Notes: generated from the sequence alone by a model not told the origin. 64,000 nucleotides of DNA from a virus (IMGVR_UViG_3300031951_000017:32001-96000); one strand, 5' to 3'. Counted from the stretch's first letter, positions 20,928 to 49,993 are shown. A program made the numbers and translations.

Positions 20928-20963
20928 TTAATAAATCGGCTAATATTTATAAAATAAAAGCCG

Positions 20964-25684: not shown

Positions 25685-25708
25685 AACAATAAATACTACG
25701 ATATTCAA

Positions 25709-27385
25709 TTAAGATTCTTTTCTTAATTCTTTGTCATAGTGGTCAAATCTATTGTGTTCAGTAGGTGTTGCTAATAAAATTCCAGCATTAATCAAATTTT
25801 CTTTGGTCATTTGGTAAACGTGAGACATCCAAGTTTGTTCGTGAGGGTGAGCCCATTTAGTATTTAAAAATACTTTACGACTACCTTCTTTGGTCATAAC
25901 CTGTGGCCAATTACAATAATAAACTTCCCCTGTTGCATATGGAACACCTTTATATGACATTATTTTATCATATTTTGTTTTGGGGGCGTTAGGGTCTAAT
26001 CCTTGTTGTGGTAACTTATCATTCTCAGGAAAATATTTTTGTCTAACATTCTGAGGTACGTTATACCAACTCCATTGTGTTGAATTGTCTCCGAAGAATT
26101 CCGTGAAATTCAATTTAAGAAAATCAAAACTATTTTCTTTGGTTATCAAAAGACTTTTTGTATAAAGTCTATCTATTTTTCTAACAAACCCATTCTTACA
26201 ATTTACATCGGGACCTGAATAGAAAAACATATCATCCTCAAAAAACATCATAAAATCGGAATCACTCTCATCAAAATGTTCCGCAATATATTGTCTACCA
26301 CCACATATTCCTAAATTTGTATGGGGTTTATAATGAGTAAAACCATATTCCTTACATAGATTATCATATTCCATATAAGTTTCAGAGTTTGTTGAATTAT
26401 TAATCAAATATTTTTTTGGAAGTTTTAGGAAGTCCTCGTCGTAGACCTCCATAGATTTAATTAATGTTTTAAATTGGTTTGGACTATTAAATGTTAAAAC
26501 ATATAAGGAACATTTTTTAATATTTAAATCAGTCTTAACTTGTGTTTTAGGGTCAAAAGTTTTTAAGTTTTCAAAAAATGGCCAAACTAATCCATTACCA
26601 GTAATTTCATAACGATGTATTTGATTTGGGTAATTGTGGGCAAGGATGGTGAATAAACACTCGTCCGCACCCATAAGACCTTCATTTATTGTTCTATAAA
26701 GTACATTATAATAATAATTGTTTATTTCATGTACTTGTTCTTTACTACCCCCAAAAAAACCACCTCGACACACATACTCAACAAAAGTAGTATTACAATA
26801 TTGAGCCATTTTTTTTCTTTCAAATCCGTGAATTTCATCATTTGCAGTGTATGGATAACTGATAAAAGTAAATTTATCTACAAATTGTGTATATTCTGGT
26901 AACCTATCAAAAACTTTATCTGTTGTAAAATAACCAGGATTAACAGTTGACGTTATCCCACCATCAATCCAATAAAAATATTCACTTCTAAATGGATTAA
27001 GTATAGCCGTATCATTAACCATAAACATTTTACACATCATCATAGGATTGTAAAATTCTAATCCCGCTTGTGGGGAATCTTTTAACCACCCTGCAAAATT
27101 AAACCATTCAGGATTTGTTCTAATTTTTTGTAATTCATTAAAAAATGGAAACCACGTTTTAAAATCCTCTAGCTCTTTGAAATAAACAACGGTGTTATGT
27201 CTCTTACGTATTTTCCAAACCTCAGACTCTAGTGACCTTGGAATCCAAATACATAGATTTGCATCAGTTTCTAGTAATTCAAAAAATTTTTGTTTATACG
27301 TATCAAAACTACGTTGTGCCCATCCATTTAAGTTTTCCCTACCTAAGTCCCACAATCCGGTGACAATTGTAACTTTACTATTCAT
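25709..27385 (-). CDS. Two-domain glycosyltransferase: HtrL/YibB(WlaTC)-like plus GT-A (GT2-like)
   Basis: TIVTGLWDLGR, NPF..EYFYWIDGG, GGFFGG, ADE; second domain LYVLTFN...NLGICGGR...FFEDD. Confidence 0.7.
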   Translation of the reverse strand: MNSKVTIVTGLWDLGRENLNGWAQRSFDTYKQKFFELLETDANLCIWIPRSLESEVWKIRKRHNTVVYFKELEDFKTWFPFFNELQKIRTNPEWFNFAGWLKDSPQAGLEFYNPMMMCKMFMVNDTAILNPFRSEYFYWIDGGITSTVNPGYFTTDKVFDRLPEYTQFVDKFTFISYPYTANDEIHGFERKKMAQYCNTTFVEYVCRGGFFGGSKEQVHEINNYYYNVLYRTINEGLMGADECLFTILAHNYPNQIHRYEITGNGLVWPFFENLKTFDPKTQVKTDLNIKKCSLYVLTFNSPNQFKTLIKSMEVYDEDFLKLPKKYLINNSTNSETYMEYDNLCKEYGFTHYKPHTNLGICGGRQYIAEHFDESDSDFMMFFEDDMFFYSGPDVNCKNGFVRKIDRLYTKSLLITKENSFDFLKLNFTEFFGDNSTQWSWYNVPQNVRQKYFPENDKLPQQGLDPNAPKTKYDKIMSYKGVPYATGEVYYCNWPQVMTKEGSRKVFLNTKWAHPHEQTWMSHVYQMTKENLINAGILLATPTEHNRFDHYDKELRKES

Positions 27386-27392
27386 AATTAAA

Positions 27393-28433
27393 TTATTTTG
27401 TATTTCCTAAATTTAAATAAAAACCCTCAAAAGACGATACAACATAAGTTTTTTCTGGGTCAATATTTGTTTTAAAATAAGTTCTCCATTTTTTTGGTAG
27501 TTCTTTTGCAATATCTGTTTTAAAGAACTGGTCATAATCAACAAATCCGTTATTTGATAAGTTTAATTTTTTATAATTATTTTTTTTAAGTTGTTCCTCT
27601 ACAATGTTTGTAACATCTATTGTAATTTTTTCTTGGCTATGAAGACTGCGTCCTTCATCCCGTTGTTCATTAAAATATCCATATTCAGAACTAACCAACT
27701 CAATTTTTAAGTTTGATAAATCAGTTCCATCGTAAAAATATTTTGGTATTATTGAGTAGTGTGAGTCATAACAAAAATGAAAAAATTCATAGTATTTTGT
27801 GTCGTTTTTAAATTTATTAGACTCCATTAACCATGCTTCACACTGCCACCTAGAACCTCCCCAAAAATTCATAAAAGGGATGTTATTTCTAATATAGTAT
27901 GCATTTACCCACCAAAAATTTCCCCAATACCAAAAATTGTGACAATGTACACCAACAATGTTGTAAGTGTTTAATTTTTCAAGACATATTTTCCATTTTT
28001 CAATTAAAAAATATTCAAGCATCTCAACCCAAGAATTTTCTGATTCAATTTTAAGTTCATCAATTTCAAAGTTTACAAAATTTTTGAACTTATTAAATAC
28101 TCCTTTAGTGTGGAAATAAAGAATTTTGGCGTCCTCATATTTAAAAGATAGTTCATACACTTGATTAAGTGCTAATACACCTTCTCCATAATTTTTGAAC
28201 CCATGAATAAAATTTATTTTTTCATATTTAATTTTAAGAGTTTCAACAATATTAGAGTATTCTTTTTTTTCGTCCGTTAAATATATGAAAATATCGTCAG
28301 CTTTCTCATATAACCCAAACAATTCTAATTTTCTTAATTGCTCCTCAAGTTTGAGTTGCCAATCATTAACCATGTAACAATGAGCAACAACAAAAATTTT
28401 AGAGTTGTCTATCATTTTTTTATTTTTTAACAA
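27393..28433 (-). CDS. Putative glycosyltransferase (HTKG...GNFWW family)
   Basis: ILYFHTKGV, WVEMLEYF, YWGNFWW, RWQCEAWL; glycosyltransferase cluster context. Confidence 0.5.
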   Translation of the reverse strand: MLKNKKMIDNSKIFVVAHCYMVNDWQLKLEEQLRKLELFGLYEKADDIFIYLTDEKKEYSNIVETLKIKYEKINFIHGFKNYGEGVLALNQVYELSFKYEDAKILYFHTKGVFNKFKNFVNFEIDELKIESENSWVEMLEYFLIEKWKICLEKLNTYNIVGVHCHNFWYWGNFWWVNAYYIRNNIPFMNFWGGSRWQCEAWLMESNKFKNDTKYYEFFHFCYDSHYSIIPKYFYDGTDLSNLKIELVSSEYGYFNEQRDEGRSLHSQEKITIDVTNIVEEQLKKNNYKKLNLSNNGFVDYDQFFKTDIAKELPKKWRTYFKTNIDPEKTYVVSSFEGFYLNLGNTK

Positions 28434-30849
28434 TTATTGCAGTAATACTCCAATTAGGCCTTACTTTAACTATTTCACAACTTTTTATATTTTCTTCTAG
28501 ATATTTTGTTTCAGATTCTGTTAAATAATCAGAAAAAATTCTACCTGTTTTTTGAAACTCTTCTAACATTTGTAAGGTCGTAGTTTTTTTAGGGTCTCCC
28601 CAATTACACCAAGCTTTTTCAGGCATCAGGGCTTCAATACTAGTATGTAAATCTTCCATCACAAATATACCTCCACTTTTAATTGATTTAAATAAAGTTG
28701 CTAAAGTTATTTGTTGGTCGTACATCCTATGACTCCCGTCATCTAGTATTACATCAATGTCAGTATTTTCTTCTGAAAACTTTATTAGTTCTTCTTTTTT
28801 AGACTGGTCCAAAAGTTTTATACTAATCCTTTCAAAGTTATTAAATTGTCTAATTGATTCTGGGTTATTATCTAAACCCAAAATTTCAGAATTAACAAAG
28901 TAATCGGACCAAACTTTTAATGAATTCCCGTCTAAAACACCAATCTCTACAAATTTTTTAATTTGGTCTTTTATTGGTGAAAAAGTTTTTTCATAAATCT
29001 TACTAAAGTAGTCATGTTCGTGGTGTTTATCCGTGGGATAAATTTCCGCTAATTGTGTTAACATAAATTTTGATGTATCTATTTTTATATTGAATTTATT
29101 TCGATAAATAACGTCGATAGTTCTGTATGGGGTATTACCATATGAGAATGCATGGAATATAAATTTATTCTCATTGTAATCTCTAGAATTTAAATCACCA
29201 TTAGGGATGATTTTAAATTTAGTTCTATCGTCTAATCTTTCGCGTACATATTTTAAACAGGTTTGGTCATGCCAAAGTGCGTTTTTATAATGTGGATATT
29301 CTTCACAAACATCCCACCAATCACGCATAAATTTTTTAACAAAATCTGAATTTTTAACTAAGAATACTCCAGCATTAACGATTGAGGGTCCAAAATCTTC
29401 GGTCATCAATACCTCAAAATTACCATGAATAAATTCCTCAATACGTCGATAATTGTTACAGAAAATCGCATCAATATCTAAAAATAAAACATAATCTAAA
29501 TTAGGATTTTTTTCTAACATTTCTAAAACTAGTTTAGGTTTATACCAAGTTGCGGCACGTCCCTCTAGTTTAGTTCTTATTTTTTCAGTATTTTTTTCTA
29601 CAAAATAATAATAATGATTTTCTTCACAATATTTCTCATTAATAGCTTCAGTATACCTACCATATAATACGTTATCAGTATAAAATTGACAAACACCAAT
29701 TTTTAAATTGGTGTCTGCACATATTGTCGTACTTTGTTTTTTAGGGGTTTTATCTAAGACTAACCATTTTTTACCTTTAAAATCAAACATCTCACTTATT
29801 TCGTTAAGGTCTATCCCATCGACTTCGGTAGTTTCTAAATTTAAATTATTAAAATTATTTTGAACCTCCCCGTCAAATTGGACAATTAACCTACCACCTT
29901 CCTGAACTGAATTAATGTACTCATCAATTAATTTGGGGTTAGTGTTTTTAAAAATGTCAACATTTGGAATAACTAATGTGTGAATAGAGTTTTTCCCAAA
30001 AGGACAAAATCCTCTGAAATCATAACTACTCCTCACTTGTCTTCCATAGAACTCCCAATTGTATTTATCTTTATTGTAGGCGTACCACATAGCGGTATAT
30101 TCCCCATCACCATACCAAGTTTTTACAGGGGTGTGATTCCAAAAATTAACATCCGAGTCAATAATTACTTTTCGCTTCATCGGAATATTTTGGTAATAGT
30201 AGTCCAATACATCCTCAACAAAATATTGTCTTTTACCATTCGTATAATGAATAGTAAAAAATTTTTCACCTAGAATATATTGAGTACAAAGTAAATTTGT
30301 CGTTTTAACAACAAAATCTCCATTGTTAATGAATTCAAACAAAGCTTTATCTTCTATAGTTTGGTTTGTTAAATTTTCATGATTCACTAACCCACTACAT
30401 ACTCTTTTTGATAAGAATAGACCAGCACCACCACCTGAATTATTACGTAATACATCAGCATTACCTAATTCTTCTAAAACATTATCTAAAACATAATGAT
30501 TCACATAAGACCCATCGTCAATTCTAAAAATATAATCAAATTCCTCATTTTTCAACACCCATCCTATTGCTTCTTTTAATCTTTCAAACATAAATGATTT
30601 AGTCTGCCCTTGGATTGGTGGATTATGGTCGTAAGTCTCAGGTGAAACACAATGTAATATCTTGTCTACTGGGTTGTATGTAAGTTTATCATTACCTCCA
30701 TCAAAAAAAATAACTTTGTGACCTAATGACTCAACTTTAGGTACCCATGTCTCTAAACAAGACATTTTTCTTGTTAATGAAGCGTCAGATATTTTAATAT
30801 GATTACCATCATATTTTTTACTAGTAAATGCTAAAAAAACTATTTTCAT
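28420..30849 (-). CDS. Fusion: GT31-like + GT34-like glycosyltransferases + SAM-dependent sugar O-methyltransferase
   Basis: ETW..YIFRIDDGSYV..GGGAGLFLS (GT31-like); WYKP..FLDIDA..NAGVFLVKN..HDQ (GT34-like); TDK.H.Y..EIGVLDG..DDGSH..GGIFVMEDL (methyltransferase). Confidence 0.75.
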   Translation of the reverse strand: MKIVFLAFTSKKYDGNHIKISDASLTRKMSCLETWVPKVESLGHKVIFFDGGNDKLTYNPVDKILHCVSPETYDHNPPIQGQTKSFMFERLKEAIGWVLKNEEFDYIFRIDDGSYVNHYVLDNVLEELGNADVLRNNSGGGAGLFLSKRVCSGLVNHENLTNQTIEDKALFEFINNGDFVVKTTNLLCTQYILGEKFFTIHYTNGKRQYFVEDVLDYYYQNIPMKRKVIIDSDVNFWNHTPVKTWYGDGEYTAMWYAYNKDKYNWEFYGRQVRSSYDFRGFCPFGKNSIHTLVIPNVDIFKNTNPKLIDEYINSVQEGGRLIVQFDGEVQNNFNNLNLETTEVDGIDLNEISEMFDFKGKKWLVLDKTPKKQSTTICADTNLKIGVCQFYTDNVLYGRYTEAINEKYCEENHYYYFVEKNTEKIRTKLEGRAATWYKPKLVLEMLEKNPNLDYVLFLDIDAIFCNNYRRIEEFIHGNFEVLMTEDFGPSIVNAGVFLVKNSDFVKKFMRDWWDVCEEYPHYKNALWHDQTCLKYVRERLDDRTKFKIIPNGDLNSRDYNENKFIFHAFSYGNTPYRTIDVIYRNKFNIKIDTSKFMLTQLAEIYPTDKHHEHDYFSKIYEKTFSPIKDQIKKFVEIGVLDGNSLKVWSDYFVNSEILGLDNNPESIRQFNNFERISIKLLDQSKKEELIKFSEENTDIDVILDDGSHRMYDQQITLATLFKSIKSGGIFVMEDLHTSIEALMPEKAWCNWGDPKKTTTLQMLEEFQKTGRIFSDYLTESETKYLEENIKSCEIVKVRPNWSITAIIVKK

Positions 30850-30854
30850 AAAAA

Positions 30855-32105
30855 TTATAAATTCCCAGTGATTCGGTTACACCATCCTTTAGATTTAGAG
30901 TAAGGCCAAACAACCCAATATTTTGGTTGTTCTGCAGTTTGGAAGTCTCTCCACAATTTACAATACCCGTCAGGGTCACGCATTAGGTTATTAATTTCAT
31001 TAATGTCTGCGTCTTTTCTGTATAAAGTATTATCTTTTTCATCGTGGAAAGCAACAACCCAAAATTCATAATCTTTTTCAGGTACCTGTGAAAACCCTAA
31101 ATCAATACAATGTTTGAAAATTCTTGCAAAACTATCTTCCCATTCCTGTTCAGTACTAAACGTATTTGGATTTGGTGGATATTTTTTATCTAGTGTCCAT
31201 TGTTGAACAGCTCGTTTACCAAAATGTAATCCTGCATATTTTTCATAGTCTCTTAAAGTTCTTTCAGTACCAAAACCAAAAACACCAAATTCTTCAGGAT
31301 TATATTTTTCACCATCCATCGAGAATAATTTACGATTTTTTAAATGGCACTTGTTATTTCTTTCTACCCACTTTTTATCGTCGTCCCATTGTTTTGTTCT
31401 ACCTTTACGGGTATACTCATGCCAAATAACAACTTTATGAGGGTGAAATAAATCATATCCGTGTGTATATGCTCTTGCCGCAATTGAAATTTCTTCTCCG
31501 TGAAAATAGTATTCAGGGTCGTGTTGAACTTCTTTTGAGAACTGTCCTACTGTAAAACAAAAATGTGCGGAATAAAATCTCGCAGGGATTGGCTCGGTCA
31601 TTTTTTTCCATCCAGGGATTGTCTCGGGTAAAAAGAAAACCGCACCTTCAGGAATAAATCTATCAAAAGCCATTCTCCAAGGCTCTTTAATTCTTGCGGC
31701 AGGGTCATTATCAGGGTCAAAAGACGATACATAACCCGTTAATAAAGGTTTCTTATGTCCTTTCTCTTGGAGTTGTGTAATCATTCCAATTAAGGTCTCG
31801 TCCCAGTCCTTATCAAATCTCATATGAGAATCAACCTGAAGAGTATATTCTTCATTCTTATAGACTTGTTGTATAAGATTTCTAGCCCAACAAGCACCTT
31901 GTGATTCGTTATAAGGGATATCAATAATTCTAAAACGTTTATCTTTTTTATATTTTGTAAGGTCATCAAATCCATCATTTGGGTTGAATTGTCTAGCAAT
32001 ACCAAATCTTAAATTTTTTGGATTTTTTGCATTTTCAATGGCTGACTCTATGGTTGGGATTAATTGTGGGTCTCTATAAGACGCAATTTGGATAAAAATT
32101 TTCAT
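30855..32105 (-). CDS. GT60-like polypeptide/hydroxyproline alpha-GlcNAc transferase
   Basis: IFIQIASYRDP, GACWAR, LQVDSHMRF..WD (DxH), FYSAHF.F, DP..YFHGEEI..AARAYTHGYD..HP....WH.Y. Confidence 0.8.
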   Translation of the reverse strand: MKIFIQIASYRDPQLIPTIESAIENAKNPKNLRFGIARQFNPNDGFDDLTKYKKDKRFRIIDIPYNESQGACWARNLIQQVYKNEEYTLQVDSHMRFDKDWDETLIGMITQLQEKGHKKPLLTGYVSSFDPDNDPAARIKEPWRMAFDRFIPEGAVFFLPETIPGWKKMTEPIPARFYSAHFCFTVGQFSKEVQHDPEYYFHGEEISIAARAYTHGYDLFHPHKVVIWHEYTRKGRTKQWDDDKKWVERNNKCHLKNRKLFSMDGEKYNPEEFGVFGFGTERTLRDYEKYAGLHFGKRAVQQWTLDKKYPPNPNTFSTEQEWEDSFARIFKHCIDLGFSQVPEKDYEFWVVAFHDEKDNTLYRKDADINEINNLMRDPDGYCKLWRDFQTAEQPKYWVVWPYSKSKGWCNRITGNL

Positions 32106-32149
32106 AAAATTATTCTTTTATGAATAAAATTAAAAACTAATTGTTAAAA

Positions 32150-32650
32150 TTAAAGACATTTTGGACATTCTTCTGAAATTGTTCCACTCACAATTTGATA
32201 CTGATTTTCAGTCACTAAGAATGTGGAATAACCTGGTAAATTTTGATTTAAAACTGATTCTATATACATACAACAACCATCTATTGTAAGTATCATTGGT
32301 GGGGTTATTTCTTGGTAAGTTATAAAATTAAAGTAATACCCTCCACTACTATTATTTAAGAAATTTTCACACAATTGTGGGTCACAGACCTCACAACTCT
32401 TTGCTACGGTAAAATAGTTGAATGTTGGTGGCTCCGTTGTTGTTGTGGTTGTTTCAGGTATAATTAATTGACAATTTTGACCTTGGTTTATAAAGTACAA
32501 ATCGTAGGTTCCTTCGTAATTTTCAACGTCAAATGTGTAAGGAATTATATGCGAACCTAAATCAATAGAACCACCACTTAAAGGATAAAATGTAATGTTT
32601 GCAACATCTCCTGAAAAAATTTGACTCTTTAATGTTATAACTGTTCCCAT
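32150..32650 (-). CDS. Putative virion protein: shared N-terminal module, Thr run, Cys-rich domain
   Basis: FSGDVANITFYPLSGG module; PETTTTTTEPPT. Confidence 0.6.
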   Translation of the reverse strand: MGTVITLKSQIFSGDVANITFYPLSGGSIDLGSHIIPYTFDVENYEGTYDLYFINQGQNCQLIIPETTTTTTEPPTFNYFTVAKSCEVCDPQLCENFLNNSSGGYYFNFITYQEITPPMILTIDGCCMYIESVLNQNLPGYSTFLVTENQYQIVSGTISEECPKCL

Positions 32651-32663
32651 TTTACTTTATAAA

Positions 32664-33983
32664 TTATTTACTAATTATTACACCTGTTGCAATATAATTA
32701 GACCCATCTCTTATTGTTATATTCCCACTATCCAAAACTTGAGGGGACCTACTAGCGGTTTCATCGTATATCAATATTCCATCCTCGTCTAATTGTGACG
32801 TGACACTTTCACCTGTGACCATATTTACTATAATTCTAACCACATCTTTATCCGTAACCATAAATGAACCACTACGACTAACATTCGTATTAACAACTTC
32901 TAACCCATTTTTTAATATTCTATAAGTATTTAACTCGGAACCTCCAGCGTCGTCAAATGACCAATTAAAATTATCTGTGGGTGGTAATGTTTCCATTGTT
33001 GCCGTAGGTGTAGGAGTTAATTCAGGTAATGTTGATGATGGTGTCAAAGTTGGAGTTTCTGTTAAGGTAGGCGTATTGGTAGGTGTTAAAGTTGGTGTAC
33101 TAGTTGGAGTTTCAGTTAAAGTAGGTGTGTTTGTTGGCGTCTCCGTTAATGTTGGTGTGTTAGTAGGTGTACTAGTTGGGGTTTCAGTTAAAGTAGGGGT
33201 ATTTGTTGGAGTATTAGTAGGTGTACTAGTTGGGGTTAGTGTGGGGGTCTCAGTTAATGTCTGAGTCAAAGTAGGTGTATTGGTTGGAGTTGAGGAATTT
33301 GTTAAAGTTAGTGTAGGTGTCGGTGGTGGGGTAAAGATGGTGTCGGCAGTAAAATTAAAACCTATCTCAATATTCTGAGGTGAGAATTGTAAATTTGTAA
33401 ATTCTGAAGTATCATTTAAATTATAATAATCGTAATCGACTACAATAAGTGTACTTCCTGATAAATCGCCAGCTTGTATTGTAACTCCCGAACTAATAAT
33501 TAGACTATCACCAGATAATGTGCCTAACACATGTTGGAATGATACTGATAAATCAAAATCTAGTGGTTCAGTTGTTACTAGGGTATATTCGGCATTTACA
33601 GACCCAGGGCTAATAGTTGAGGTAAAGATTACTTCAGTATTCTGAGGTACAAAATTTAAGTCATAACTTATATCGCAAATATTAAGTATTGTTGTGGTAG
33701 TTGTAGTAATTGGTTCAAAAGTAGTTGTGGTTGTTACAGGAATAAAAGTGGTTGTTGTAGTTGTTGATGGTAAGACATTAATAATACAGGTTTTATAAAA
33801 TCTAATATAGTAAAAAGTATATTTACCATAAACCGATAAATTAGGTTCAATATCGTCACCATAAAAGGTAAAGGGGACTACTTGTTCACCCAAATCATAA
33901 ACAGACCCGTTTAAAGACTCAAACGTAACTTGTGCAGTTTGTCCACTATAGTTTGTATCGAAAAATTCAACGTATTGTGACAT
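32664..33983 (-). CDS. Mucin-like Thr/Pro-rich putative virion protein
   Basis: Three poly-Thr runs, a beta domain, about 110 aa of TPT(L/N/S)/TETP repeats, C-terminal beta domain. Confidence 0.7.
   Translation of the reverse strand: MSQYVEFFDTNYSGQTAQVTFESLNGSVYDLGEQVVPFTFYGDDIEPNLSVYGKYTFYYIRFYKTCIINVLPSTTTTTTFIPVTTTTTFEPITTTTTTILNICDISYDLNFVPQNTEVIFTSTISPGSVNAEYTLVTTEPLDFDLSVSFQHVLGTLSGDSLIISSGVTIQAGDLSGSTLIVVDYDYYNLNDTSEFTNLQFSPQNIEIGFNFTADTIFTPPPTPTLTLTNSSTPTNTPTLTQTLTETPTLTPTSTPTNTPTNTPTLTETPTSTPTNTPTLTETPTNTPTLTETPTSTPTLTPTNTPTLTETPTLTPSSTLPELTPTPTATMETLPPTDNFNWSFDDAGGSELNTYRILKNGLEVVNTNVSRSGSFMVTDKDVVRIIVNMVTGESVTSQLDEDGILIYDETASRSPQVLDSGNITIRDGSNYIATGVIISK
32984..33332 (-). repeat. 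Coding low-complexity repeat (TPTLTETPTNTPTS)
   Basis: Degenerate 12/18-bp periodic DNA encoding Thr/Pro repeats. Confidence 0.85.
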
Positions 33984-33985
33984 AG

Positions 33986-34855
33986 TTAAAAATTATTTTC
34001 TGTGGCCAAACAAATTTCACCATTCATTTTTATTAATCTCTCCATATCTGTAAATGAGATATAGGCATTACCTTGTAATCCCCATCCCCTTCCCCAACTA
34101 TTCTTTATTCTAAATAGTCTTTTTCTAGTATCAATTCCATTAATAACATAGGCGTGTCCACCAACAATAGGTCCTCCAATACGAATATTACCATTTCTAT
34201 CAGGATAAAACATATTTCTATACCAATATGTCCCAGCAACTACGGGCCCAACATTTAATACGGTGTTAATTAGTGTGTTAATGTCAAATGCCCAATAGTA
34301 GTTTTTAATTCGGTTTGTTTGTTGTAAATACTTGGCACCAGCCCTAACAGATGTACCATCATAATTTTCTCCAGGCCACTCGTCAATCTTTTGAGACTCC
34401 TTATAAATTAATGTTGGGTGTACAATAGGTGGAGTACCTCCGTGTTTTACGGGACCATCCTCAATCCAATGTGCCCAAGAATATCCAACACATTGTGGTG
34501 TAATTCCTTGGTTTCCCCACCATTCATTTTGTTCCCAGTACCTAGATATGATTGGACTCTTATTAATTGTTATTTTATCTTTAATTAAGTAATTCTTATC
34601 TCTATTATCAATTGATATTCCCCTACCTAAACCAAACACTAACTCTGTAAGTCCTGATGGTGAAACAAAAACCTCACAACTTTGACTTTGAGCTGTAAAA
34701 TTAAGGTTATATGTTCCTTCGTAGTAATCCGTAACATAAACATAGGGGATTATTTGTGAACCAATATCAATACTACCACCCGTTAATGGGTAGAATGTGA
34801 TATTAGCAACATCACCTGAAAAATTATCACTTTTTAAAATTACTACTGACGGCAT
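33986..34855 (-). CDS. Papain-like (C1) cysteine peptidase with the shared N-terminal module
   Basis: NQGITPQCVGYS (Gln/Cys), GGHA (His), KNSWGRGWG (Asn). Confidence 0.85.
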   Translation of the reverse strand: MPSVVILKSDNFSGDVANITFYPLTGGSIDIGSQIIPYVYVTDYYEGTYNLNFTAQSQSCEVFVSPSGLTELVFGLGRGISIDNRDKNYLIKDKITINKSPIISRYWEQNEWWGNQGITPQCVGYSWAHWIEDGPVKHGGTPPIVHPTLIYKESQKIDEWPGENYDGTSVRAGAKYLQQTNRIKNYYWAFDINTLINTVLNVGPVVAGTYWYRNMFYPDRNGNIRIGGPIVGGHAYVINGIDTRKRLFRIKNSWGRGWGLQGNAYISFTDMERLIKMNGEICLATENNF

Positions 34856-34882
34856 TTAAAAATAAATATCCAAATAAATGAT

Positions 34883-35512
34883 TTATACCCTTTGGAAATA
34901 CTTATATATTCTTTGACTTAATCTAATTCTTGGGTCATTTTCATTTCTACCTAGGGTTTTGTAGGGGAGGATAAACCCAAAACTTAAAAACACTCTTCGT
35001 GATTTAAATTCATTAGTCCAATGTTTGTAAAGAGATGCTTCAAAACAATATAAATCGGTTTCAGATATATTAAGTACGTCTTCTCCGATGAAAATTTGAT
35101 AGTCTTCGGATAAGACACTAATATTACATTTATAATTAATATATCCGTCTATTGATGCATCATAATGGGGGGTTATCTTACCACCTGAGTCCATATCAAC
35201 AACTTGTAAAAATATATTGTCTGCTGGGATTTCTAAAGTTTCAGATAATCTGCCAATAATGGACTCAATAAAATCAGGAACTTTAATTTTTAAAACCTGA
35301 CTGACAGACTGAAAGTTTGTGATATAGTTTGTGTAACTATTATTTGAAATATCTATAATAGTAGATTTACCATTTAAATCTTTTGTGATTTCAGATAAGT
35401 GGTGATTTGGATTACCTTTATCCGATTCTAATGAATTTACCCATTCTAAAATTTTTATAACTTCTTCTTTAGTTATAAAATTTCGTATCACCTTATGATT
35501 TTCAATCCCCAT
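34883..35512 (-). CDS. 2OG-Fe(II) dioxygenase, prolyl-hydroxylase-like
   Basis: IRNFITKEE N-terminus; GGKITPHYD (HxD), YKHW (His), RRVFLS (Arg). Confidence 0.7.
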   Translation of the reverse strand: MGIENHKVIRNFITKEEVIKILEWVNSLESDKGNPNHHLSEITKDLNGKSTIIDISNNSYTNYITNFQSVSQVLKIKVPDFIESIIGRLSETLEIPADNIFLQVVDMDSGGKITPHYDASIDGYINYKCNISVLSEDYQIFIGEDVLNISETDLYCFEASLYKHWTNEFKSRRVFLSFGFILPYKTLGRNENDPRIRLSQRIYKYFQRV

Positions 35513-35736
35513 TTGTTAAGAAATTCTTTTGGTCCAATTTCTAACTCCATTATAGATAAATTTTTTTTATTGTAAATCTTCATCATTTGTTCTTCAGACC
35601 CAGCCATTGTACAATACCAATGAGTCGCGGGTTCTTCTCCTGTTGGTGAACAAGGTATTTTCATTACATTTTTATTTATCCAAGCTTCTCTAACTTGTTC
35701 TACCTTATCGTTGTCTGTTAAAATGTTAATTCTCAT
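35488..35736 (-). CDS. Hypothetical protein
   Basis: 82-aa ORF in the operon. Confidence 0.55.
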   Translation of the reverse strand: MRINILTDNDKVEQVREAWINKNVMKIPCSPTGEEPATHWYCTMAGSEEQMMKIYNKKNLSIMELEIGPKEFLNKWGLKIIR

Positions 35737-35765
35737 AATATTATTTAATTGTTTTAAATTAATTA

Positions 35766-36416
35766 TTAGTCCTTTATGATTATTTCAATTGGTGTGTAAA
35801 ATAATGAATCTAAAGCATTAGTTAAATCAGTCACTCCTTTATTACTTAACACAATAAAACTATCAGGATTATTAATATTCCCTAATGAAACAAAAGAAAT
35901 TATAAATTCGTCAATAGATTCTATATATTTTGATTGTGTGTTTACAATTGTATTATTTCTTGGGAATGTGTCTACAGATATTGGGTTAGTCCCCCCAGTA
36001 TAGTAGCTTCCAGGAGAAACCTTCCCCCAATTAATTTCAAATCCCAAACTATTTTCTAACACTGAAACACAAAGATTACCTGACGAAGTAATTTCTGAGT
36101 AATCTCCCCAATAACTTGGGGTCTCCCCCGTGGCAATAAATACACATCCAGTTTGATTTATTACACCACTTTGAACATAGGCAATATTACTAAAATCGTC
36201 ATTTGAAACATAGTCTGTAATTGTATAAGTTTCACCTATGATAAATTTTCCATATAACTGACTTGTGTCATTTGCAACTAAAATAGGTGTTTGAGTTAGT
36301 AATGCTCTATAAGTTCTATTATTTGTAATCCCTGTTACAGTTATATTACCATTAATTGTAAGGTCACCAACTATAGTCTGACCTGATAAATTATCTATTA
36401 TGTATTTTGTTGCCAT
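35766..36416 (-). CDS. Putative tail-fibre-associated protein
   Basis: GDLTINGNITVTG, YRALLTQ; follows the beta-helix fibre gene. Confidence 0.5.
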   Translation of the reverse strand: MATKYIIDNLSGQTIVGDLTINGNITVTGITNNRTYRALLTQTPILVANDTSQLYGKFIIGETYTITDYVSNDDFSNIAYVQSGVINQTGCVFIATGETPSYWGDYSEITSSGNLCVSVLENSLGFEINWGKVSPGSYYTGGTNPISVDTFPRNNTIVNTQSKYIESIDEFIISFVSLGNINNPDSFIVLSNKGVTDLTNALDSLFYTPIEIIIKD

Positions 36417-36418
36417 TT

Positions 36419-38620
36419 TTATTCTGTTATGTTTGTTATATTTAGGACATCATTTGAGTCGTAGTATGATAATCTTTGTCCGCCACCTGCCCTTGTAAAG
36501 ATTTCGCAATTATAAAATCCGTAGACGTGAGTTGATTCTGAAAAATCAATAGATATTACACTATTACATATTCTATTCATTTGGAAATAATCTACAACAA
36601 TGTTATTAGTAAAATTATCTCCAATAGTATTATCATAAAAATATTCTCCGATGTTATTATCATAGAAATTATTACCAATCACATTTCCTCTATATGAACC
36701 TCCGCCAAAACCAAAACCATCTAGAACTTCGTTACTATAAAAATTAGTACCTATTGTGTTATATGAAAATGAACCATAACAATTATTAAATTCAAAATAA
36801 TCTCCGATATTGTTACTGATTGTTTGTCCACTCATATTATTCACGAAGAAACTATAACCAACATTATTATAACCAAATTCGGCAAATGTTTGGTTTGCTT
36901 TAAAATTTGTTTTAATATGATTACTCCAAAAATCCCCCTGAATGTTATTACCCTTGAATTCATTCATAATTTGATTGTTTTCAAAGGTAAGATTTAAATT
37001 GTCTGAATCTCCGATTGTGTTACCTTCAAACCCATTTAATATTGAGTTTTTATATATGTTTGAATATATATTATTATTATAAAAATCATTTAAAATATTG
37101 TTACTTTGGAAGTTATATCTAATTGTATTAGTTGCACAATCACTTCCAATACTATTCCCTACAAAATTGTATGACCCTATATTTGTACTAATACCAATCG
37201 TATTACCCCCAAAAACTTGACCGATATTATTTTCATAAAATTGGTTATATACAGTATTATTATTATAACCATTACCAATCAAATTACGATAATAGTTTGA
37301 ATAGCTTTTATTGTTGTTATAACCATTGCCGATGTCGTTATTATAAAAGTCATTATAGATTTTATTATTTGCAAATTGGTTACCTATTTCATTATTTTGA
37401 AAATCTCCATTAGTCCAAGTGTTATCTTCAAAGTTATTCCCAATATTGTTTCTATAAAAAGAACCACCAATTAAGACATTATAGTTAAAATCACTACCAA
37501 TTCTGTTATTATTAAAATTCGCAGTTATATAATTATTATTGAAGTTTTCCCCGATGATGTTTCCATCAAAATCATCATTTGTTGAGTTGTTATAAAAACT
37601 ATCACCTATTTGATTATTGTCACAATCGTCATTAAATGTGTTATTATATGACCTATTTCCTATTGTGTTGTTTGTGAATGAACCACTAATAAAAACGTTG
37701 TTTGCTAAAAGAAAATCTCCTGAGCCAAGCTCAATATATATATTTGAGTGGTTACCAATATAATTGTTAACTGCGGTTGTCTCATTAAATGTAGTATATT
37801 CGAAAACCTCATTCACCCTTATATTAGGTTGATAGTAACTCATAACACCATCATCATAGGCCGTGTAATATGATGAATTACTAGTCTCATTTATTGTAAC
37901 ACCTGAAATAGTTGCCAAAGAATTACTATTAACTAATATGACTTCAAAAATTCGAGGGTTTAGATTACCTATCGCAACAAACGAACCTGTTGAAAAATTT
38001 GAACTAAATGTTGTTCCTGTATTACCGTATAATACTCCTGTGTTCCCTGTTATACCACTTATTCCAACGAGTCCACTAAGTGGTTCAGATTCATAATACG
38101 AATATCCAATATACCTTTTAAATAATATATTTCTGTGGTCATAATCAGTTCTATTACTAAAATTATCAATTCTTTCAGTGATTCTACCTTTCGCGGGACT
38201 ATTGCTAATTTCAGTTATGTTCCAAGAAATGTCGTATGTTATTTTATCTTTAGGGTGTAGTGTTGAGTGTACTGTCGGTGAGAATCCTGTTATTGAAGTT
38301 GCTAATAATAAAATTGGTTCGGTGTCACCTGTCATATAGTTATCCGAAAATATAGGACTACGAAGATTATCGTAGTTTGGTTGGTCATAACAAGTTTGGA
38401 AATCTGTCATTAAGTAAAATTGACCAGGTGTTAACGTCCCTCCGGTGTATAAAGAATACAACTCATTATAAGTGATTTCAGTGTAAGTTGTTATACCAGA
38501 AAATAAACTTTCTTTTGTTATTTTATATGTTTCAGTTTGAGCTGAATTATTTAATATAAGCCAAGTATTATCTGTTGACCCTGTAAATTCTGGTAATTGC
38601 GAAATTTTTATATTAGCCAT
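36419..38620 (-). CDS. Tail fibre/spike with Asn-rich parallel beta-helix
   Basis: N-terminal KISQLP; many NxIGNxFxxN repeats. Confidence 0.7.
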   Translation of the reverse strand: MANIKISQLPEFTGSTDNTWLILNNSAQTETYKITKESLFSGITTYTEITYNELYSLYTGGTLTPGQFYLMTDFQTCYDQPNYDNLRSPIFSDNYMTGDTEPILLLATSITGFSPTVHSTLHPKDKITYDISWNITEISNSPAKGRITERIDNFSNRTDYDHRNILFKRYIGYSYYESEPLSGLVGISGITGNTGVLYGNTGTTFSSNFSTGSFVAIGNLNPRIFEVILVNSNSLATISGVTINETSNSSYYTAYDDGVMSYYQPNIRVNEVFEYTTFNETTAVNNYIGNHSNIYIELGSGDFLLANNVFISGSFTNNTIGNRSYNNTFNDDCDNNQIGDSFYNNSTNDDFDGNIIGENFNNNYITANFNNNRIGSDFNYNVLIGGSFYRNNIGNNFEDNTWTNGDFQNNEIGNQFANNKIYNDFYNNDIGNGYNNNKSYSNYYRNLIGNGYNNNTVYNQFYENNIGQVFGGNTIGISTNIGSYNFVGNSIGSDCATNTIRYNFQSNNILNDFYNNNIYSNIYKNSILNGFEGNTIGDSDNLNLTFENNQIMNEFKGNNIQGDFWSNHIKTNFKANQTFAEFGYNNVGYSFFVNNMSGQTISNNIGDYFEFNNCYGSFSYNTIGTNFYSNEVLDGFGFGGGSYRGNVIGNNFYDNNIGEYFYDNTIGDNFTNNIVVDYFQMNRICNSVISIDFSESTHVYGFYNCEIFTRAGGGQRLSYYDSNDVLNITNITE

Positions 38621-38657
38621 TTTTAATTTTATCTATAAATACTTTTATTTTTTTCAT

Positions 38658-41600
38658 TTAACAAGGTCCTGTGAATGTTAATGGGAATTGACAATCAAAC
38701 GCAACCCCACCACCTGCACCTGTAAATACATAAGTATATGTGCCATCCGATGAAACAATTCCTACAAAACTAGTTGACCCATTATTATCTGTTATAGTAT
38801 CATTTACTTGTATTTGTAAAGTTTCTGAAGTTTGTGTTAGTACAAGTTGATTTGTATTAATAGTTGTACCGCCATTCCATAAGGTTGGAATCACAATATT
38901 ACGTTGACAATTTGGTGTTAAAGTTAGTGTTGGTGTTGGGGATGGTGTTGGAGTTGGTGAACTTGGTGGTGCTGATGGCCAAGATTTAACGTTTGTCAGT
39001 AAAACCTGTATTTTTGCGGTCTGTGATGATGATACCGTTTCAAACCAAGAAGCCCCATTGTTTGTTGTTGCCCACCCAAAGGTGTCAGGAACCGCATTCG
39101 GGTAAGCTGGTGACAAGAAGTTTAAAACTGGGTATAAGTTAGTAGATGCTGGCGCCGCTTCAACACCGCTAGGTCTTTTTCTAACGTAGAACATAGTCAT
39201 ACCACCAATTACATTTGGTGAATTTCCCATATAAGTCGGAGTACCAGTGTGATATGTCGTCGTATATCCAAGTTGGACTTGACCATTTTGATTCCAAGAC
39301 TCTGCAACAAATCCTACAACGTAATAACCTGTAGGTATCGTGAGAGGGGTACTAGCGTCGATTGTTCCAAAAGTCGTAGTATCATATCCAGTTGCAACTG
39401 CTCTTGTGTTTACTTGTTCGTCAGTATTACCAATTTTAACCACACCATCAACATTACCAAAAATATCATTATATTCTTGTTGCGTAATAATTACCCAATC
39501 ATTATCTGTTGCATTTTGATAACTTACTAAACTTGTTGTTAATTGGTCTTCTAACGCATCATAATTTGGGTCGACTACATACGATGGGGCTAAATTAGCT
39601 CCAGAATCTAAAAATACTGATACTGTTGTTGATTGTTCATTTGATAAAAAAGATGCACCATACACATTCCACCCTGTAAACATATAACCTGGTGATGGTA
39701 CTGCCTGTATATTATATGAGACATTCTTTTCAACACTAACTTCAGTTTGTTCAGTATAAGTTACACCATCAAATATTATTGATAAACCACCACTTAATGG
39801 TTGGATGTACAACGTTAGGGGTACTAATGGTACTACTGAAGTTGTTGGTGTCATAGTCTGTGTTGGTGTTGGTGTGGATGTAGGTGTTGAGGACTGGGTG
39901 AGTGTCGGTGTTAATGTTGGAGTAGATGTGGGTGTAGGTGTTGGTGTTGGTGTGGATGTGAGTGTAGGTGTTGGTGTTTGACTAGATGTAAGTGTGGGTG
40001 TAGGTGTTGGTAAACAAAGGTCTAATTCTGTGATTATATAACTACCATTTTCTGCAATAATAAAATCATCGTTTTCAGTTAGAAGATATTGATTACAAGG
40101 GTTAAGATTAAAGATTGTTTCCGAAGATAGTGAGATTACTAAATCAACCCAATATGGTGACCATTTAACATCAACAAATTCTGACGTATCATTCAATATA
40201 TTATAATCCTCTTGACGTATTACAATAGTTTCACCACTTAATAAACCTTTTGGTACCACAACACCTGATTCAATATTTATACTATCTCCACTAATAGTCC
40301 CTAAAATATGTGTGAATGTAACCGACAAATCAAAATCTAAAGTGTTACTTAATTGTAGAGAATACACTGCTTCAATTGAACCTGGATATAGATTAGCAAT
40401 TAATATTACCTCAGCATCTAATGGTATATTATAAAGTTCATAGTTTACATCGCAAGGTATAATTGTAGTTGTTGTTGTAGTTACAGGTATCGTAGTTGTT
40501 GTTGTAGTTACAGGTATCGTGGTGGTTGTGGTTGTAATTTCATAAACTATTGCTGACAAATCACACTCAGGGACAATAACCTCACAATCGGGACAATCCC
40601 AATCAAACAAATTATACCTACCCTTATTTAATTTAAAATTATGTTTAACTTCGTCAGACGTTAAAGGTTTTACATAGTAATTAAATTGTGATATACCCCC
40701 ATCAAACGTACCTGCAAAGTATTTTTCTAATACTATATTTGTCGATAGTCCTGATAATGTAGTTCCACTTAAAACTGAATCAGGGAATAATTCAGGGTCT
40801 TGTTGGTATTGATAACCTAAATACGATGATGTTGTTGTCGTTGTTGAGTAATCTATTGTTGTAGTCGTGGTAACATCACCTGAAATTGGACATTCAATAA
40901 ATGTTAAATTTTCTCTCAGTCCTTGTGTACCACCACCCCAAGATATGTTAAACGGAACCCCTATTTGTTTTTCCCTCTCAACGTTCAAAGCTCTAGGTAT
41001 GACCTCTTCAAAATTTTCAAATGTGTGAAATTTACGTCCATTTACGTAGATTTTTAATCTACCTAATCTATAATCTTTTTCTTTTAACCACTTATCATTT
41101 AATTCAACAACCTCTCTACCATACGGAGTTTCAATTGTTGTTACATTATATGTTGTAGTTGTTGATGTGTATGTTGTGGTATAATAGTGAGTATATGGTG
41201 GTTGAATTAATGTGACAGATTGATTGTAAGTGGATGCGGTATAAACAAAATTAGTAATGTCCCCTAATCCGCCATACCAATACAAATGACATTCGTCCAT
41301 TGCACGATATCTCTCAAATACAACATCGACTTGTACCCAATGTTCAAATTTAATATAGTCAGTATTTTCACAAAAATAATGTATTCCTTTTGGTGTACAA
41401 TACTCTTGGACCGTACAACCTGATGTATAAGTTTTTGTTCCTGTACATGCATCTACGGCACATTCATCGGTTAACCTTAAAACCCTAACACATATTTTTG
41501 GATTACCCGGGTCACCACTAAATTTAACCACAAAATTGTTTGAACATGAGTCTCCACTTGGGTTAAGTTCAGGTGCAGTTATTTCTACCGAACTACATGG

Positions 41601-42530
41601 TGTAGTTTCAGTCACATATCTTAATGGTGGGTATACTGGACCACAATGTGAAAAAGTATTACCTGTATCTGAACATCCACAAGTACTTAAACAATCTAAT
41701 TTTTCAGTAACACGAGTATAAGCTGAAAATCCTGATGGTGAACCTGAAGCATAATGATAAAATTTATTCTCAGCCCTTGCTCCCATATAGAAGAACATAC
41801 CTGAATTTTCAGGGTAAACGTCATTTAAAGTTGTATCGCCAGTAGGTACAAAATAATCATCCCATATTCTAGGTCTTAATAATAATTCAGCACTCCATCC
41901 GTGATTTGGTCTTTCAGGTAACGTTTCATAATCGTACCCATATAACTTATAGAACCCTTGATAAAATCCTCCGTATAATTCATGGTAAACCCCTACATCA
42001 GTTTGTTTGGAAACAATCGAATAGTTGTCATTTTTTTCAATACCTGAAAATCTAATATTTGGTGGTTGGGTATATCCTGTTACTTGGAAAAATTTAGTTC
42101 TTCTGTCAAAAGATAACCTATCGAATTTTGTAAAATCGTTAATCCCTTGGGTTATGAATGCTGTCTCACCAGTCATTTCTTTTACAAGACCATTATCAAT
42201 ACCTGTAAGACCTATGTCACATAAACTTGTAAACCCTGAATAACAAGACAAATCTAGATTATCTGGATTATAGTAGTTTGACGAAACTAAAATATTAAAC
42301 GGATTATATGTGTTATATTCTAAAACGTATAATTCCGAATTGTCGGGATTATTTAAATCAATCTTAATTGGTAAGACGTTCCCGTCCTCATTACCTATAA
42401 TATAAGGTGAGAAAATAACTTCTTCTTTATAGTCCCTTTCATCTGACGTTAAACAGAAATCCATTATTTCAGATTTGTTTAACAAATACCATTTTGGGAA
42501 ATTATATTGGTTGATATTTTGGTACGCCAT
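38658..42530 (-). CDS. 1290-aa virion protein: LamG-like region, poly-Thr and TP mucin-like stalks, Ig-like domains
   Basis: LKIYVNG...FDGGISQFNYYVKPLTSDEV (LamG-like); TTTTTIPV repeats; PTPTPT tracts; YNIQAVPSPGYMFTGW. Confidence 0.7.
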   Translation of the reverse strand: MAYQNINQYNFPKWYLLNKSEIMDFCLTSDERDYKEEVIFSPYIIGNEDGNVLPIKIDLNNPDNSELYVLEYNTYNPFNILVSSNYYNPDNLDLSCYSGFTSLCDIGLTGIDNGLVKEMTGETAFITQGINDFTKFDRLSFDRRTKFFQVTGYTQPPNIRFSGIEKNDNYSIVSKQTDVGVYHELYGGFYQGFYKLYGYDYETLPERPNHGWSAELLLRPRIWDDYFVPTGDTTLNDVYPENSGMFFYMGARAENKFYHYASGSPSGFSAYTRVTEKLDCLSTCGCSDTGNTFSHCGPVYPPLRYVTETTPCSSVEITAPELNPSGDSCSNNFVVKFSGDPGNPKICVRVLRLTDECAVDACTGTKTYTSGCTVQEYCTPKGIHYFCENTDYIKFEHWVQVDVVFERYRAMDECHLYWYGGLGDITNFVYTASTYNQSVTLIQPPYTHYYTTTYTSTTTTYNVTTIETPYGREVVELNDKWLKEKDYRLGRLKIYVNGRKFHTFENFEEVIPRALNVEREKQIGVPFNISWGGGTQGLRENLTFIECPISGDVTTTTTIDYSTTTTTSSYLGYQYQQDPELFPDSVLSGTTLSGLSTNIVLEKYFAGTFDGGISQFNYYVKPLTSDEVKHNFKLNKGRYNLFDWDCPDCEVIVPECDLSAIVYEITTTTTTIPVTTTTTTIPVTTTTTTIIPCDVNYELYNIPLDAEVILIANLYPGSIEAVYSLQLSNTLDFDLSVTFTHILGTISGDSINIESGVVVPKGLLSGETIVIRQEDYNILNDTSEFVDVKWSPYWVDLVISLSSETIFNLNPCNQYLLTENDDFIIAENGSYIITELDLCLPTPTPTLTSSQTPTPTLTSTPTPTPTPTSTPTLTPTLTQSSTPTSTPTPTQTMTPTTSVVPLVPLTLYIQPLSGGLSIIFDGVTYTEQTEVSVEKNVSYNIQAVPSPGYMFTGWNVYGASFLSNEQSTTVSVFLDSGANLAPSYVVDPNYDALEDQLTTSLVSYQNATDNDWVIITQQEYNDIFGNVDGVVKIGNTDEQVNTRAVATGYDTTTFGTIDASTPLTIPTGYYVVGFVAESWNQNGQVQLGYTTTYHTGTPTYMGNSPNVIGGMTMFYVRKRPSGVEAAPASTNLYPVLNFLSPAYPNAVPDTFGWATTNNGASWFETVSSSQTAKIQVLLTNVKSWPSAPPSSPTPTPSPTPTLTLTPNCQRNIVIPTLWNGGTTINTNQLVLTQTSETLQIQVNDTITDNNGSTSFVGIVSSDGTYTYVFTGAGGGVAFDCQFPLTFTGPC
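40465..40518 (-). repeat. Perfect 27-bp tandem duplication encoding IPVTTTTTT
   Basis: gtagttgttgttgtagttacaggtatc x2. Confidence 0.9.
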
Positions 42531-47170: not shown

Positions 47171-47171
47171 T

Positions 47172-47762: not shown

Positions 47763-47780
47763 AAATATAAAATATTAGTC

Positions 47781-48434: not shown

Positions 48435-48436
48435 AT

Positions 48437-49948: not shown

Positions 49949-49993
49949 TAATTTTTTATATACAAAAAATTTAATAAACATATATTTTAAAAT

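Follow-up and report, generated by a model that had tools for sequence, protein, structure and literature searches.

The stretch of viral DNA considered here, 64,000 nucleotides long and referred to below as the window, comprises bases 32001–96000 of the 163,928-bp IMG/VR virus record IMGVR_UViG_3300031951_000017 and carries, between positions 25709 and 42530, a block of minus-strand genes in which proteins with threonine/proline-rich (Thr/Pro-rich) tracts stand next to a glycosyltransferase (GT) of family GT60 and several further putative sugar-modifying enzymes. The record has a GC content of 31% and a CheckV completeness estimate of 56%, i.e., it is a 164-kb fragment. The phage is contractile-tailed, with genes for a tail sheath (11709–15065), a tail tube (10242–10730), and a baseplate hub (9291–10043) in the window; a family-B DNA polymerase (PolB) is encoded at 22421–25216 and a T4-type portal elsewhere in the record, outside the window. 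A megablast search of 20 kb against cultured phages gave no matches, the PolB is 23% identical to that of Salinibacter phages, and the sheath is approximately 30–37% identical to those of Mel-JY01 and an uncultured huge phage; judged from these sequence comparisons, the phage is distant from all cultured phages.

The open reading frames (ORFs) of the block run from 42530 down to 25709, and the series continues into the polymerase gene. An earlier reading of the DNA without database searches (the sequence-only reading) had proposed that the block encodes a mucin-type O-glycosylation pathway beside its own mucin-like virion substrates, and every ORF that it named is present on the minus strand where it was placed. 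The genes of the block, followed by the gene directly past it and a tract in the sheath gene, are from high to low coordinates (aa, amino acids; TP, Thr-Pro):

38658–42530, minus strand: modular protein of 1290 aa with six poly-Thr runs and three TP-repeat linkers, candidate acceptor
36419–38620, minus strand: Asn-rich repeat protein of 733 aa, fibre-like by its sequence, context gene
34883–35512, minus strand: protein of 209 aa with the fold of a 2-oxoglutarate- and Fe(II)-dependent (2OG-Fe(II)) oxygenase (model pLDDT 82)
33986–34855, minus strand: protein of 289 aa with a shared N-terminal domain of about 65 aa and a papain-like peptidase
32664–33983, minus strand: protein of 439 aa with 22% Thr, three poly-Thr runs, and a long TPTxTxTP array, candidate acceptor
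32150–32650, minus strand: protein of 166 aa with the shared N-terminal domain and a T6 run, directly upstream of the GT60 gene, candidate acceptor
30855–32105, minus strand: soluble GT60-family (PF11397) glycosyltransferase, from its sequence the proposed initiating polypeptide glycosyltransferase
28420–30849, minus strand: fusion protein of 809 aa with a GT31 fold (residues 1–380), a GT34 domain (approximately 390–540), and a TylF-like sugar O-methyltransferase (approximately 597–787)
27393–28433, minus strand: island gene for a protein of 346 aa, with a paralogue elsewhere in the genome
25709–27385, minus strand: protein of 558 aa with an HtrL/YibB-like N-terminal domain and a second GT-A-like domain, conserved far end of the island
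25304–25708, minus strand: small domain of about 126 aa directly past the island
14088–14189, minus strand: Thr/Pro insert (T5 ... TPTPTATPTSTPN) in the tail sheath gene 11709–15065, residues 293–326

The GT60 enzyme and the glycan island

The protein encoded at 30855–32105, which had been called GT60-like, belongs to PF11397 ("GlcNAc"), the Pfam model for CAZy family GT60, which it matches with an E-value of 1.6e-72 and 245.3 bits (cut-off 21) over positions 95–350 of the 352 of the profile; it also matches phrog_24687 at 1e-168. Its DSH (D92-S93-H94) and HPH (H221/H223) motifs are invariant in an alignment extending to the GT60 of Xanthomonas phage XacN1 and, judged from this alignment, are of the kind found in GT27 and GT60, i.e., a DxH-type metal-binding motif with a downstream His. 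A conserved C-terminal extension of about 120 aa follows. Sequence searches of the PDB with the GT60 enzyme and with the HtrL-like protein gave no matches. The characterised GT60 enzymes glycosylate polypeptides: the OGNT of Trypanosoma cruzi acts on Thr-rich mucin repeats and Gnt1 of Dictyostelium on the hydroxyproline of Skp1.

The enzyme is 72–79% identical across 80 related IMG/VR loci, 55–58% identical to Cytophagales genes, and 49% identical to ORF334 of XacN1, and in the loci compared it is better conserved than PolB (about 71%), the sheath (61%), and the HtrL-like gene (52–56%). Metagenomes contain more than 7000 homologues at 75–98% identity, and relatives are encoded in at least 494 IMG/VR stretches. 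By tblastn, the gene is present in only four of 50,697 phage records. Among 401 sampled Bacteroidota genomes PF11397 was found in one, which is the seed genome itself, and in none of 14 control genomes. Given this rarity in the sampled Bacteroidota, the gene is unlikely to have been captured recently from the genome of a typical host and appears to be mainly a phage gene rather than a routine host gene.

The 80 loci represent 71 distinct gene-length signatures. In 61 of the 71, an HtrL-like gene is found downstream of the GT60 gene after 1–8 intervening genes, and clustering of the 213 proteins encoded in between at 30% identity yields 83 families. With one representative per family, Pfam identifies among them GT10 and GT11 (fucosyltransferases), GT25, GT34, GT2, GT7, and a PLOD-type GT, and in addition UDP-galactopyranose mutase (Glf), carbamoyltransferase, sulfotransferase, several enzymes of the FkbM and rhamnosyl-O-methyltransferase types, and HAD phosphatases; galactosyltransferases are represented as well. 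The ends of this glycan island, GT60 and the HtrL-like gene, are conserved, and its middle is hypervariable.

In the window one variant of this middle is the fusion encoded at 28420–30849. Its earlier description as a GT31-GT34-methyltransferase fusion proved right, by sequence for the GT34 and methyltransferase parts and by predicted fold for the GT31 part. Residues 406–535 match GT34 (PF05637) with 49.8 bits (cut-off 23) and DUF273 with 38.6 bits (cut-off 30), and this middle domain also matches, weakly, the structure 2p6w of domain 1 of A64R from PBCV-1 (E 0.0037). Residues 596–787 are TylF/MycF-like O-methyltransferase (8ia9 at 7.3e-18, 3ssm at 3.3e-10). Residues 1–380 match no Pfam model at E ≤ 0.1, including the GT31 models Galactosyl_T and Fringe, and a profile of 27 homologues of this domain finds no relative in the PDB by sequence. 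The top Foldseek matches of its predicted structure (pLDDT 88) in the PDB are all GT31, among them B3GNT2, B3GalT5/6, CHSY3/CHPF, GfsA, C1GalT1, and Manic Fringe (E 5e-7 to 6e-5; TM by target 0.46–0.59); the motifs RIDDGSYV and GGGAG are GT31-like by eye only. The N-terminal domain is also found as stand-alone proteins of about 369 aa, and the GT34-methyltransferase part is a separate gene of 442 aa in the relative L001.

The far end of the island, 25709–27385, matches HtrL_YibB (PF09612) at 2.6e-16 and 60.5 bits (cut-off 24.1) and scores 60 against a cut-off of 265 with TIGR02192, the E. coli YibB equivalog; it lies so far under this cut-off that it is a member of the family rather than an orthologue. 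Its second half has a GT-A-like FFEDDM motif. The protein is 42% identical over its full length to ORF330 of XacN1 and 48–51% to Cytophagales genes. This gene is one of the two further GT-like genes that had been counted in the block, whereas the other, 27393–28433, has no match in Pfam, PHROG, or NCBIfam; the language-model look-alikes of the latter are DUF8361 clusters, at 0.90 only, and it is 34% identical to the gene at the equivalent position in L001.

In the block, neither the enzymes nor the Thr/Pro proteins contain a hydrophobic segment that reaches KD19 1.6, the usual threshold for membrane segments. The enzymes would therefore encounter their candidate acceptors in the cytoplasm, as would fit a soluble GT60 of the Gnt1 kind.

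Thr/Pro tracts next to the island

Runs of at least four Thr or TP repeats are found in 12 of the 163 ORFs of the 164-kb record. About 20 Thr runs are observed, where approximately 0.07 T5 runs are expected from composition, and because different Thr codons are mixed inside the runs these are not DNA slippage repeats. The tracts noticed in the sequence-only reading are thus real and far above chance. They lie between recognisable domains and therefore act as inter-domain linkers; for example, the 439-aa protein and the 1290-aa protein have a paralogous middle domain with poly-Thr/TP arrays on either side. Examples of tract peptides that are candidate acceptors are TTTTTTIPV and TPTLTETPTNTPT; such Thr-run and Pro-containing sequences resemble the mucin repeats of T. 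cruzi.

The 1290-aa protein, for which no Pfam family was found, is encoded by the first gene of the block, and homologues of its N-terminal part, mostly Thr/Pro-rich, head the same block in many related loci. The three consecutive proteins at 33986–34855, 32664–33983, and 32150–32650 have the N-terminal domain of about 65 aa in common. In the first of them it is joined to a peptidase (phrog_16701 at 2.5e-57; Peptidase_C1 weakly, at 0.0021), and since relatives encode the peptidase module as part of long proteins with Thr/Pro linkers, it may be a protease carried on the particle.

Tracts are also present in at least two certain virion proteins. The sheath (phrog_23, 8.9e-61) has the insert given above, with three poly-Thr runs at the equivalent position in the sheath of the relative L003; the portal has a tract at its C-terminus. 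It should be noted that sheath and portal are the only tract carriers recognisable as virion proteins, so that the designation of the neighbouring proteins as virion stalks goes further than the data; the three Thr/Pro proteins next to the GT60 gene may be located on the virion.

In the related loci, the ORF directly upstream of the GT60 gene on the same strand is Thr/Pro-rich in 41 of 66, and at least one of the three ORFs upstream in 54 of 66. On the other side of the island, the ORF just past the HtrL gene is Thr/Pro-rich in 27 of 55 loci. It is usually a homologue of 25304–25708, which is located downstream of the island in 45 of the 55 and is Thr/Pro-rich in 23 of these 45; such homologues often carry additional poly-Thr/TP tracts and domains that lengthen them to as much as 783 aa. 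For comparison, Thr/Pro-rich are none of the 213 island enzymes, 9 of 235 ORFs of the replication module, and 12 of 163 ORFs of the whole record. The expectation that GT60 genes co-occur with poly-Thr/TP proteins in relatives is thus borne out, in that Thr/Pro-rich ORFs flank the island in most of the 71 loci.

The same neighbourhood in unrelated settings

Phage XacN1 has a cassette of GT60 (ORF334, 49%), a carbamoyltransferase, two ORFs, and a full-length HtrL-like gene (42%), and a few genes away, after baseplate wedge genes, ORF325 encodes a TP-linker protein of 3313 aa; TP linkers are present in ORF232–237 too. Runs coding for (TP)3 number 29 in XacN1, 26 in Xoo-sp13, and 19 in CM1, three cultured phages with GT60, versus 0–1 in the reversed control and 0 in three large GT60-free phages. 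Poly-Thr had also been considered as a universal acceptor signature; poly-Thr codon runs are not enriched in XacN1 (5 versus 19 for the control), and this candidate was dropped and TP runs were tested instead. Purified virions of XacN1 show at least two Schiff-positive bands on gels in periodic acid-Schiff (PAS) staining (Yoshikawa et al., 2018, PMC5852040), and the authors proposed that ORF328 and ORF334, of which ORF334 is the GT60 homologue, make virion glycoproteins (PMC5852040).

Two of the settings are bacterial. In Jiulongibacter sediminis (Bacteroidota; L097:5945-13148), GT60, a carbamoyltransferase, and an FkbM-HtrL fusion form an operon. All five matches of the (TP)3 pattern in the 4.5-Mb genome fall into one TP-repeat gene of 262 aa, flanked by this operon on one side and by a second PF11397 gene on the other. 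The TP-repeat protein has a twin-arginine-like N-terminus, and genes for a UDP-glucose dehydrogenase and an epimerase/dehydratase are found upstream. In Paraherbaspirillum soli, two tandem GT60 paralogues are located 2.5 kb from a gene (L099:11900-14389) for the type VI secretion protein VgrG, the C-terminus of which is a long (TP)n run; this proximity hints that type VI secretion spikes may also be glycosylated.

Thr/Pro-rich proteins are thus encoded near GT60 genes in four unrelated settings. That the Thr/Pro proteins encoded nearby are the substrates of the enzymes, as had been proposed, has gained comparative support from the 71 loci, from XacN1, Xoo-sp13, Jiulongibacter, and Paraherbaspirillum, and from the PAS-positive virions of XacN1.

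Proposed function, alternatives, and known systems

We consider it fairly probable that the block encodes a cytoplasmic O-glycosylation of Thr/Pro linkers on the phage's own particle proteins. The soluble GT60 enzyme (30855–32105) would add the first sugar, by analogy with the family an N-acetylhexosamine, to Thr, possibly also Ser, of poly-Thr/TP linkers in the cytoplasm. As acceptors it would use the modular proteins encoded next to it, the insert in the sheath, and the tail of the portal. Strain-variable genes, here the GT31-GT34-O-methyltransferase fusion and the gene for the 346-aa protein, would then build and decorate the chain, and the conserved two-domain HtrL-like enzyme would close the island. 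The steps may follow one another in the fixed order initiate, extend, branch, methyl-cap that the sequence-only reading had proposed. The glycan could serve to protect the linkers against proteases, to give the particle a strain-specific surface, or to mediate adhesion.

A wider form of this explanation is possible, and we put it forward only tentatively: in a cosmopolitan lineage of large aquatic phages and, independently, in the XacN1 group, the O-antigen-like island bracketed by GT60 and HtrL would place strain-specific decorated glycans, i.e., a "glycan serotype," on Thr/Pro linkers of tail, fibre, and portal, and the pairing of GT60 with TP proteins would reflect a general prokaryotic, cytoplasmic, mucin-type O-glycosylation, maybe sharing descent with the eukaryotic GT60/GT27 initiators. 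In this wider form, held equally tentatively, the decorations would be fucosylated, methylated, carbamoylated, or sulfated, and the VgrG spike and the bacterial TP-repeat protein would be included.

Several points weigh against O-glycosylation of the linkers. We know of no bacterial or phage member of PF11397 with a demonstrated acceptor, and in this phage and its lineage glycosylation is predicted from the genes. The 71 loci are one lineage and hence non-independent, which leaves about four truly independent settings. Thr/Pro linkers are common in fibre-like modular proteins, so that their adjacency to the island could simply reflect a common position at the border of the structural module. 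The DNA polymerase gene adjoins the island and has the same orientation. To these are added the small number of tract carriers recognisable as virion proteins and the fact that the HtrL, GT25, and GT10/11 families are best known from lipopolysaccharide (LPS) and lipooligosaccharide (LOS) loci.

Alternatively, the enzymes could act on an acceptor other than the Thr/Pro tracts, such as proteins of the host cytoplasm, different sites on phage proteins, or a small molecule; the tracts would then be plain flexible linkers. That the acceptor of the island enzymes is nowhere demonstrated, that 25 of the 66 loci have no Thr/Pro-rich ORF directly upstream, and that the poly-Thr form of the tract is, from the XacN1 count, not tied to GT60 all speak for it. 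Such an acceptor is nevertheless unlikely in view of the strong enrichment of TP runs in the three cultured GT60 phages, with none in the three GT60-free controls, and in view of the adjacency statistics and the bacterial cases.

It is also rather unlikely that the island remodels envelope glycans of the host (LPS/LOS core, capsule, or another glycolipid at the cytoplasmic face), for receptor masking or superinfection block, with the Thr/Pro-rich genes as unrelated neighbours. For such a function the island has no flippase, polymerase, lipid-carrier transferase, or membrane segment, and the characterised members of the family of its lead enzyme glycosylate polypeptides. Remodelling would also leave the adjacency of TP-repeat genes to GT60 in four unrelated settings, one of them with the sole such gene of a 4.5-Mb genome, and the glycoprotein staining of XacN1 virion proteins to be explained separately. 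Its attraction lies in the gene content: HtrL/YibB family genes are found in LPS/LOS core loci; LOS and O-antigen synthesis typically involves GT25, GT10, GT11, and GT2; the Jiulongibacter copy adjoins genes for UDP-glucose dehydrogenase and an epimerase/dehydratase; and hypervariable content is characteristic of surface-polysaccharide loci.

The 2OG-Fe(II) oxygenase at 34883–35512 raises the question of hydroxyproline. The gene product, named a 2OG-Fe(II) hydroxylase in the sequence-only reading, does have the fold of a 2OG-Fe(II) oxygenase, with an invariant HxD...H...R (H116, D118, H164, R172/173); it matches no Pfam family. It could hydroxylate Pro of the TP repeats, which GT60 and/or GT31 would then glycosylate as in Skp1 or in plant hydroxyproline-rich glycoproteins; both Gnt1 (GT60) and the plant hydroxyproline galactosyltransferases (GT31) act on hydroxyproline, the gene is located among the fibre-like and Thr/Pro genes, and its fold matches algal, chlorovirus, Pseudomonas, and Dictyostelium prolyl hydroxylases with Z of about 13. 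We nevertheless judge this route improbable. In the Foldseek/VIA comparison AlkB-family enzymes and prolyl hydroxylases tie (Z 12.7–14.3), the AlkB-type nucleic-acid demethylases scoring equal or slightly higher (PHD2 and Cr-P4H 13.3, PBCV-1 vCPH 13.2, ALKBH7 14.3, AlkB 12.6–13.1). Of the 80 loci, only 2 encode an oxygenase of this family at a distance of up to 10 kb from GT60. A profile search that recovered the enzyme in this record as positive control found none in the complete 322-kb relative G001 or in XacN1, so that the oxygenase is not an obligatory part of the system and its placement in the pathway is not supported. Pure poly-Thr runs contain no Pro. The pattern argues for a Thr-linked rather than a hydroxyproline-linked sugar as the general rule.

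Hypermodification of phage DNA, i.e., of hydroxymethylated bases, by the glycosyltransferases is very improbable: although in this phage and its relatives PolB directly adjoins the island, with the DNA polymerase of XacN1 also close by, and although GT-A-fold phage DNA glycosyltransferases exist, the latter are JGT/TarP-like and are encoded beside a C5-methyltransferase and 5mYOX, or beside ThyS homologues (bioRxiv 10.1101/2023.12.21.572611), partners not found here, the record (about 56% complete) contains no TET/JBP (PF12851) or thymidylate-synthase-like (PF00303) match, the relatives' true thymidylate synthases pass the ThyA equivalog cut-off and are not hydroxymethylases, and the fucosyl-, sulfo-, and carbamoyltransferases and Glf indicate an elaborate glycan.

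The O-glycosylation of Thr/Pro linkers proposed here has its closest biochemical counterpart in the GT60 enzymes of protists, with which the phage enzyme shares the PF11397 family, the DxH-type motif, and a solubility like that of Gnt1. It differs from them in being phage-encoded, in its C-terminal extension of about 120 aa, and in having an HtrL-like partner, hypervariable modifiers, and no obligatory prolyl hydroxylase. To our knowledge, some actinophages are the only phages for which glycosylation of the particle by enzymes of the phage itself is established, and there are hints of it in XacN1. In the latter, the pair of GT60 and HtrL-like genes and the many TP-linker proteins are as in the lineage described here, whereas its middle genes are a carbamoyltransferase and two unknowns instead of GT31-GT34-methyltransferase, the phage is distant, and its host belongs to a different phylum. 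The family, the cassette, the HtrL partner, and the acceptor tracts were not recognised by its authors (PMC5852040). According to PMC12619734, phage glycosyltransferases O-glycosylate the capsid and tail proteins of mycobacteriophages (Freeman et al., 2023, Cell Host Microbe 31:1216), and the glycans of actinophages are at the C-termini of capsid and tail-tube subunits. Here, by contrast, the candidate sites are internal poly-Thr/TP linkers, GT60 is the lead enzyme, and the island is hypervariable. The same paper, on "moraphages," also describes four core glycosyltransferase groups in a Bacteroidota-phage lineage (PMC12619734).

The fusion protein is similar to A064R of PBCV-1 in being a virus-encoded, cytoplasmic, multi-domain GT-GT-methyltransferase, although the domain families are partly different, being GT31 and GT34 here. 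A64R of PBCV-1 is a capsid-protein glycosyltransferase, and the glycans of PBCV-1, a eukaryotic virus, are N-linked to the major capsid protein. By this analogy, a sugar O-methyl cap is plausible in the phage too. With O-antigen and LOS outer-core loci the island shares conserved flanks, a hypervariable middle, and the families GT25, GT10/11, GT2, and HtrL, and it differs from them in having no lipid-carrier initiating enzyme, flippase, polymerase, or ligase, in that all proteins are soluble, and in being flanked by fibre-like genes and PolB in the genome of a lytic-type myovirus.

The claim that such a pathway had not been described in a phage needs qualification: we found no paper describing GT60 or PF11397 in phages, but the XacN1 authors had already proposed in 2018 that the GT homologue makes virion glycoproteins. 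What differs from known virion glycosylation is the enzyme set, the GT60...HtrL bracket with its hypervariable middle, and the internal Thr/Pro linkers as candidates. If the explanation is correct, these aquatic phages, an abundant group, equip their tails and fibres with diverse glycans of their own making, using an enzyme family otherwise known from protist mucin and Skp1 glycosylation. This would bear on resistance to proteases and grazers, on adhesion to surfaces or hosts, and on differences between strains, and it would provide the first acceptor for the bacterial and viral PF11397 enzymes. Since XacN1 is cultured and already glycoprotein-positive, the idea is directly testable.

Some further features of the genome remain to be mentioned. 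The context gene 36419–38620 has no Pfam or PHROG family and contains dozens of NNxIGxxF-type repeats; its product is probably a beta-helical fibre, and homologues are found near the island in some relatives. The small domain past the island, 25304–25708, has no family match, and as the alignment with relatives begins at residue 9, its true start probably lies about 8 codons downstream of the listed TTG. A second set of sugar genes, conserved in relatives, lies on the other strand:

45255–52067, plus strand: second sugar-gene set, comprising the following three genes
45255–46475, plus strand: GT4-like gene
48437–49948, plus strand: double GT2 of 503 aa
51420–52067, plus strand: O-methyltransferase

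This set is interspersed with genes for dUTPase, exonuclease, and PhoH. In the relatives G004 and G001 (L092:90-1304; L093:68-1303), the thymidylate synthases are 404–411 aa long with a ThyA domain interrupted by insertions. In L003, a 186-kb phage contig, a TnpB/IS605 OrfB-type gene (Cas12f-like TNB domain) at 20538–21251 adjoins the polymerase gene, and in L001, a 252-kb phage contig, a protein of 544 aa (20771–21251) with Fe/Mn superoxide dismutase domains, as seen in precomputed Pfam matches, is encoded beside a gp13-like neck gene.

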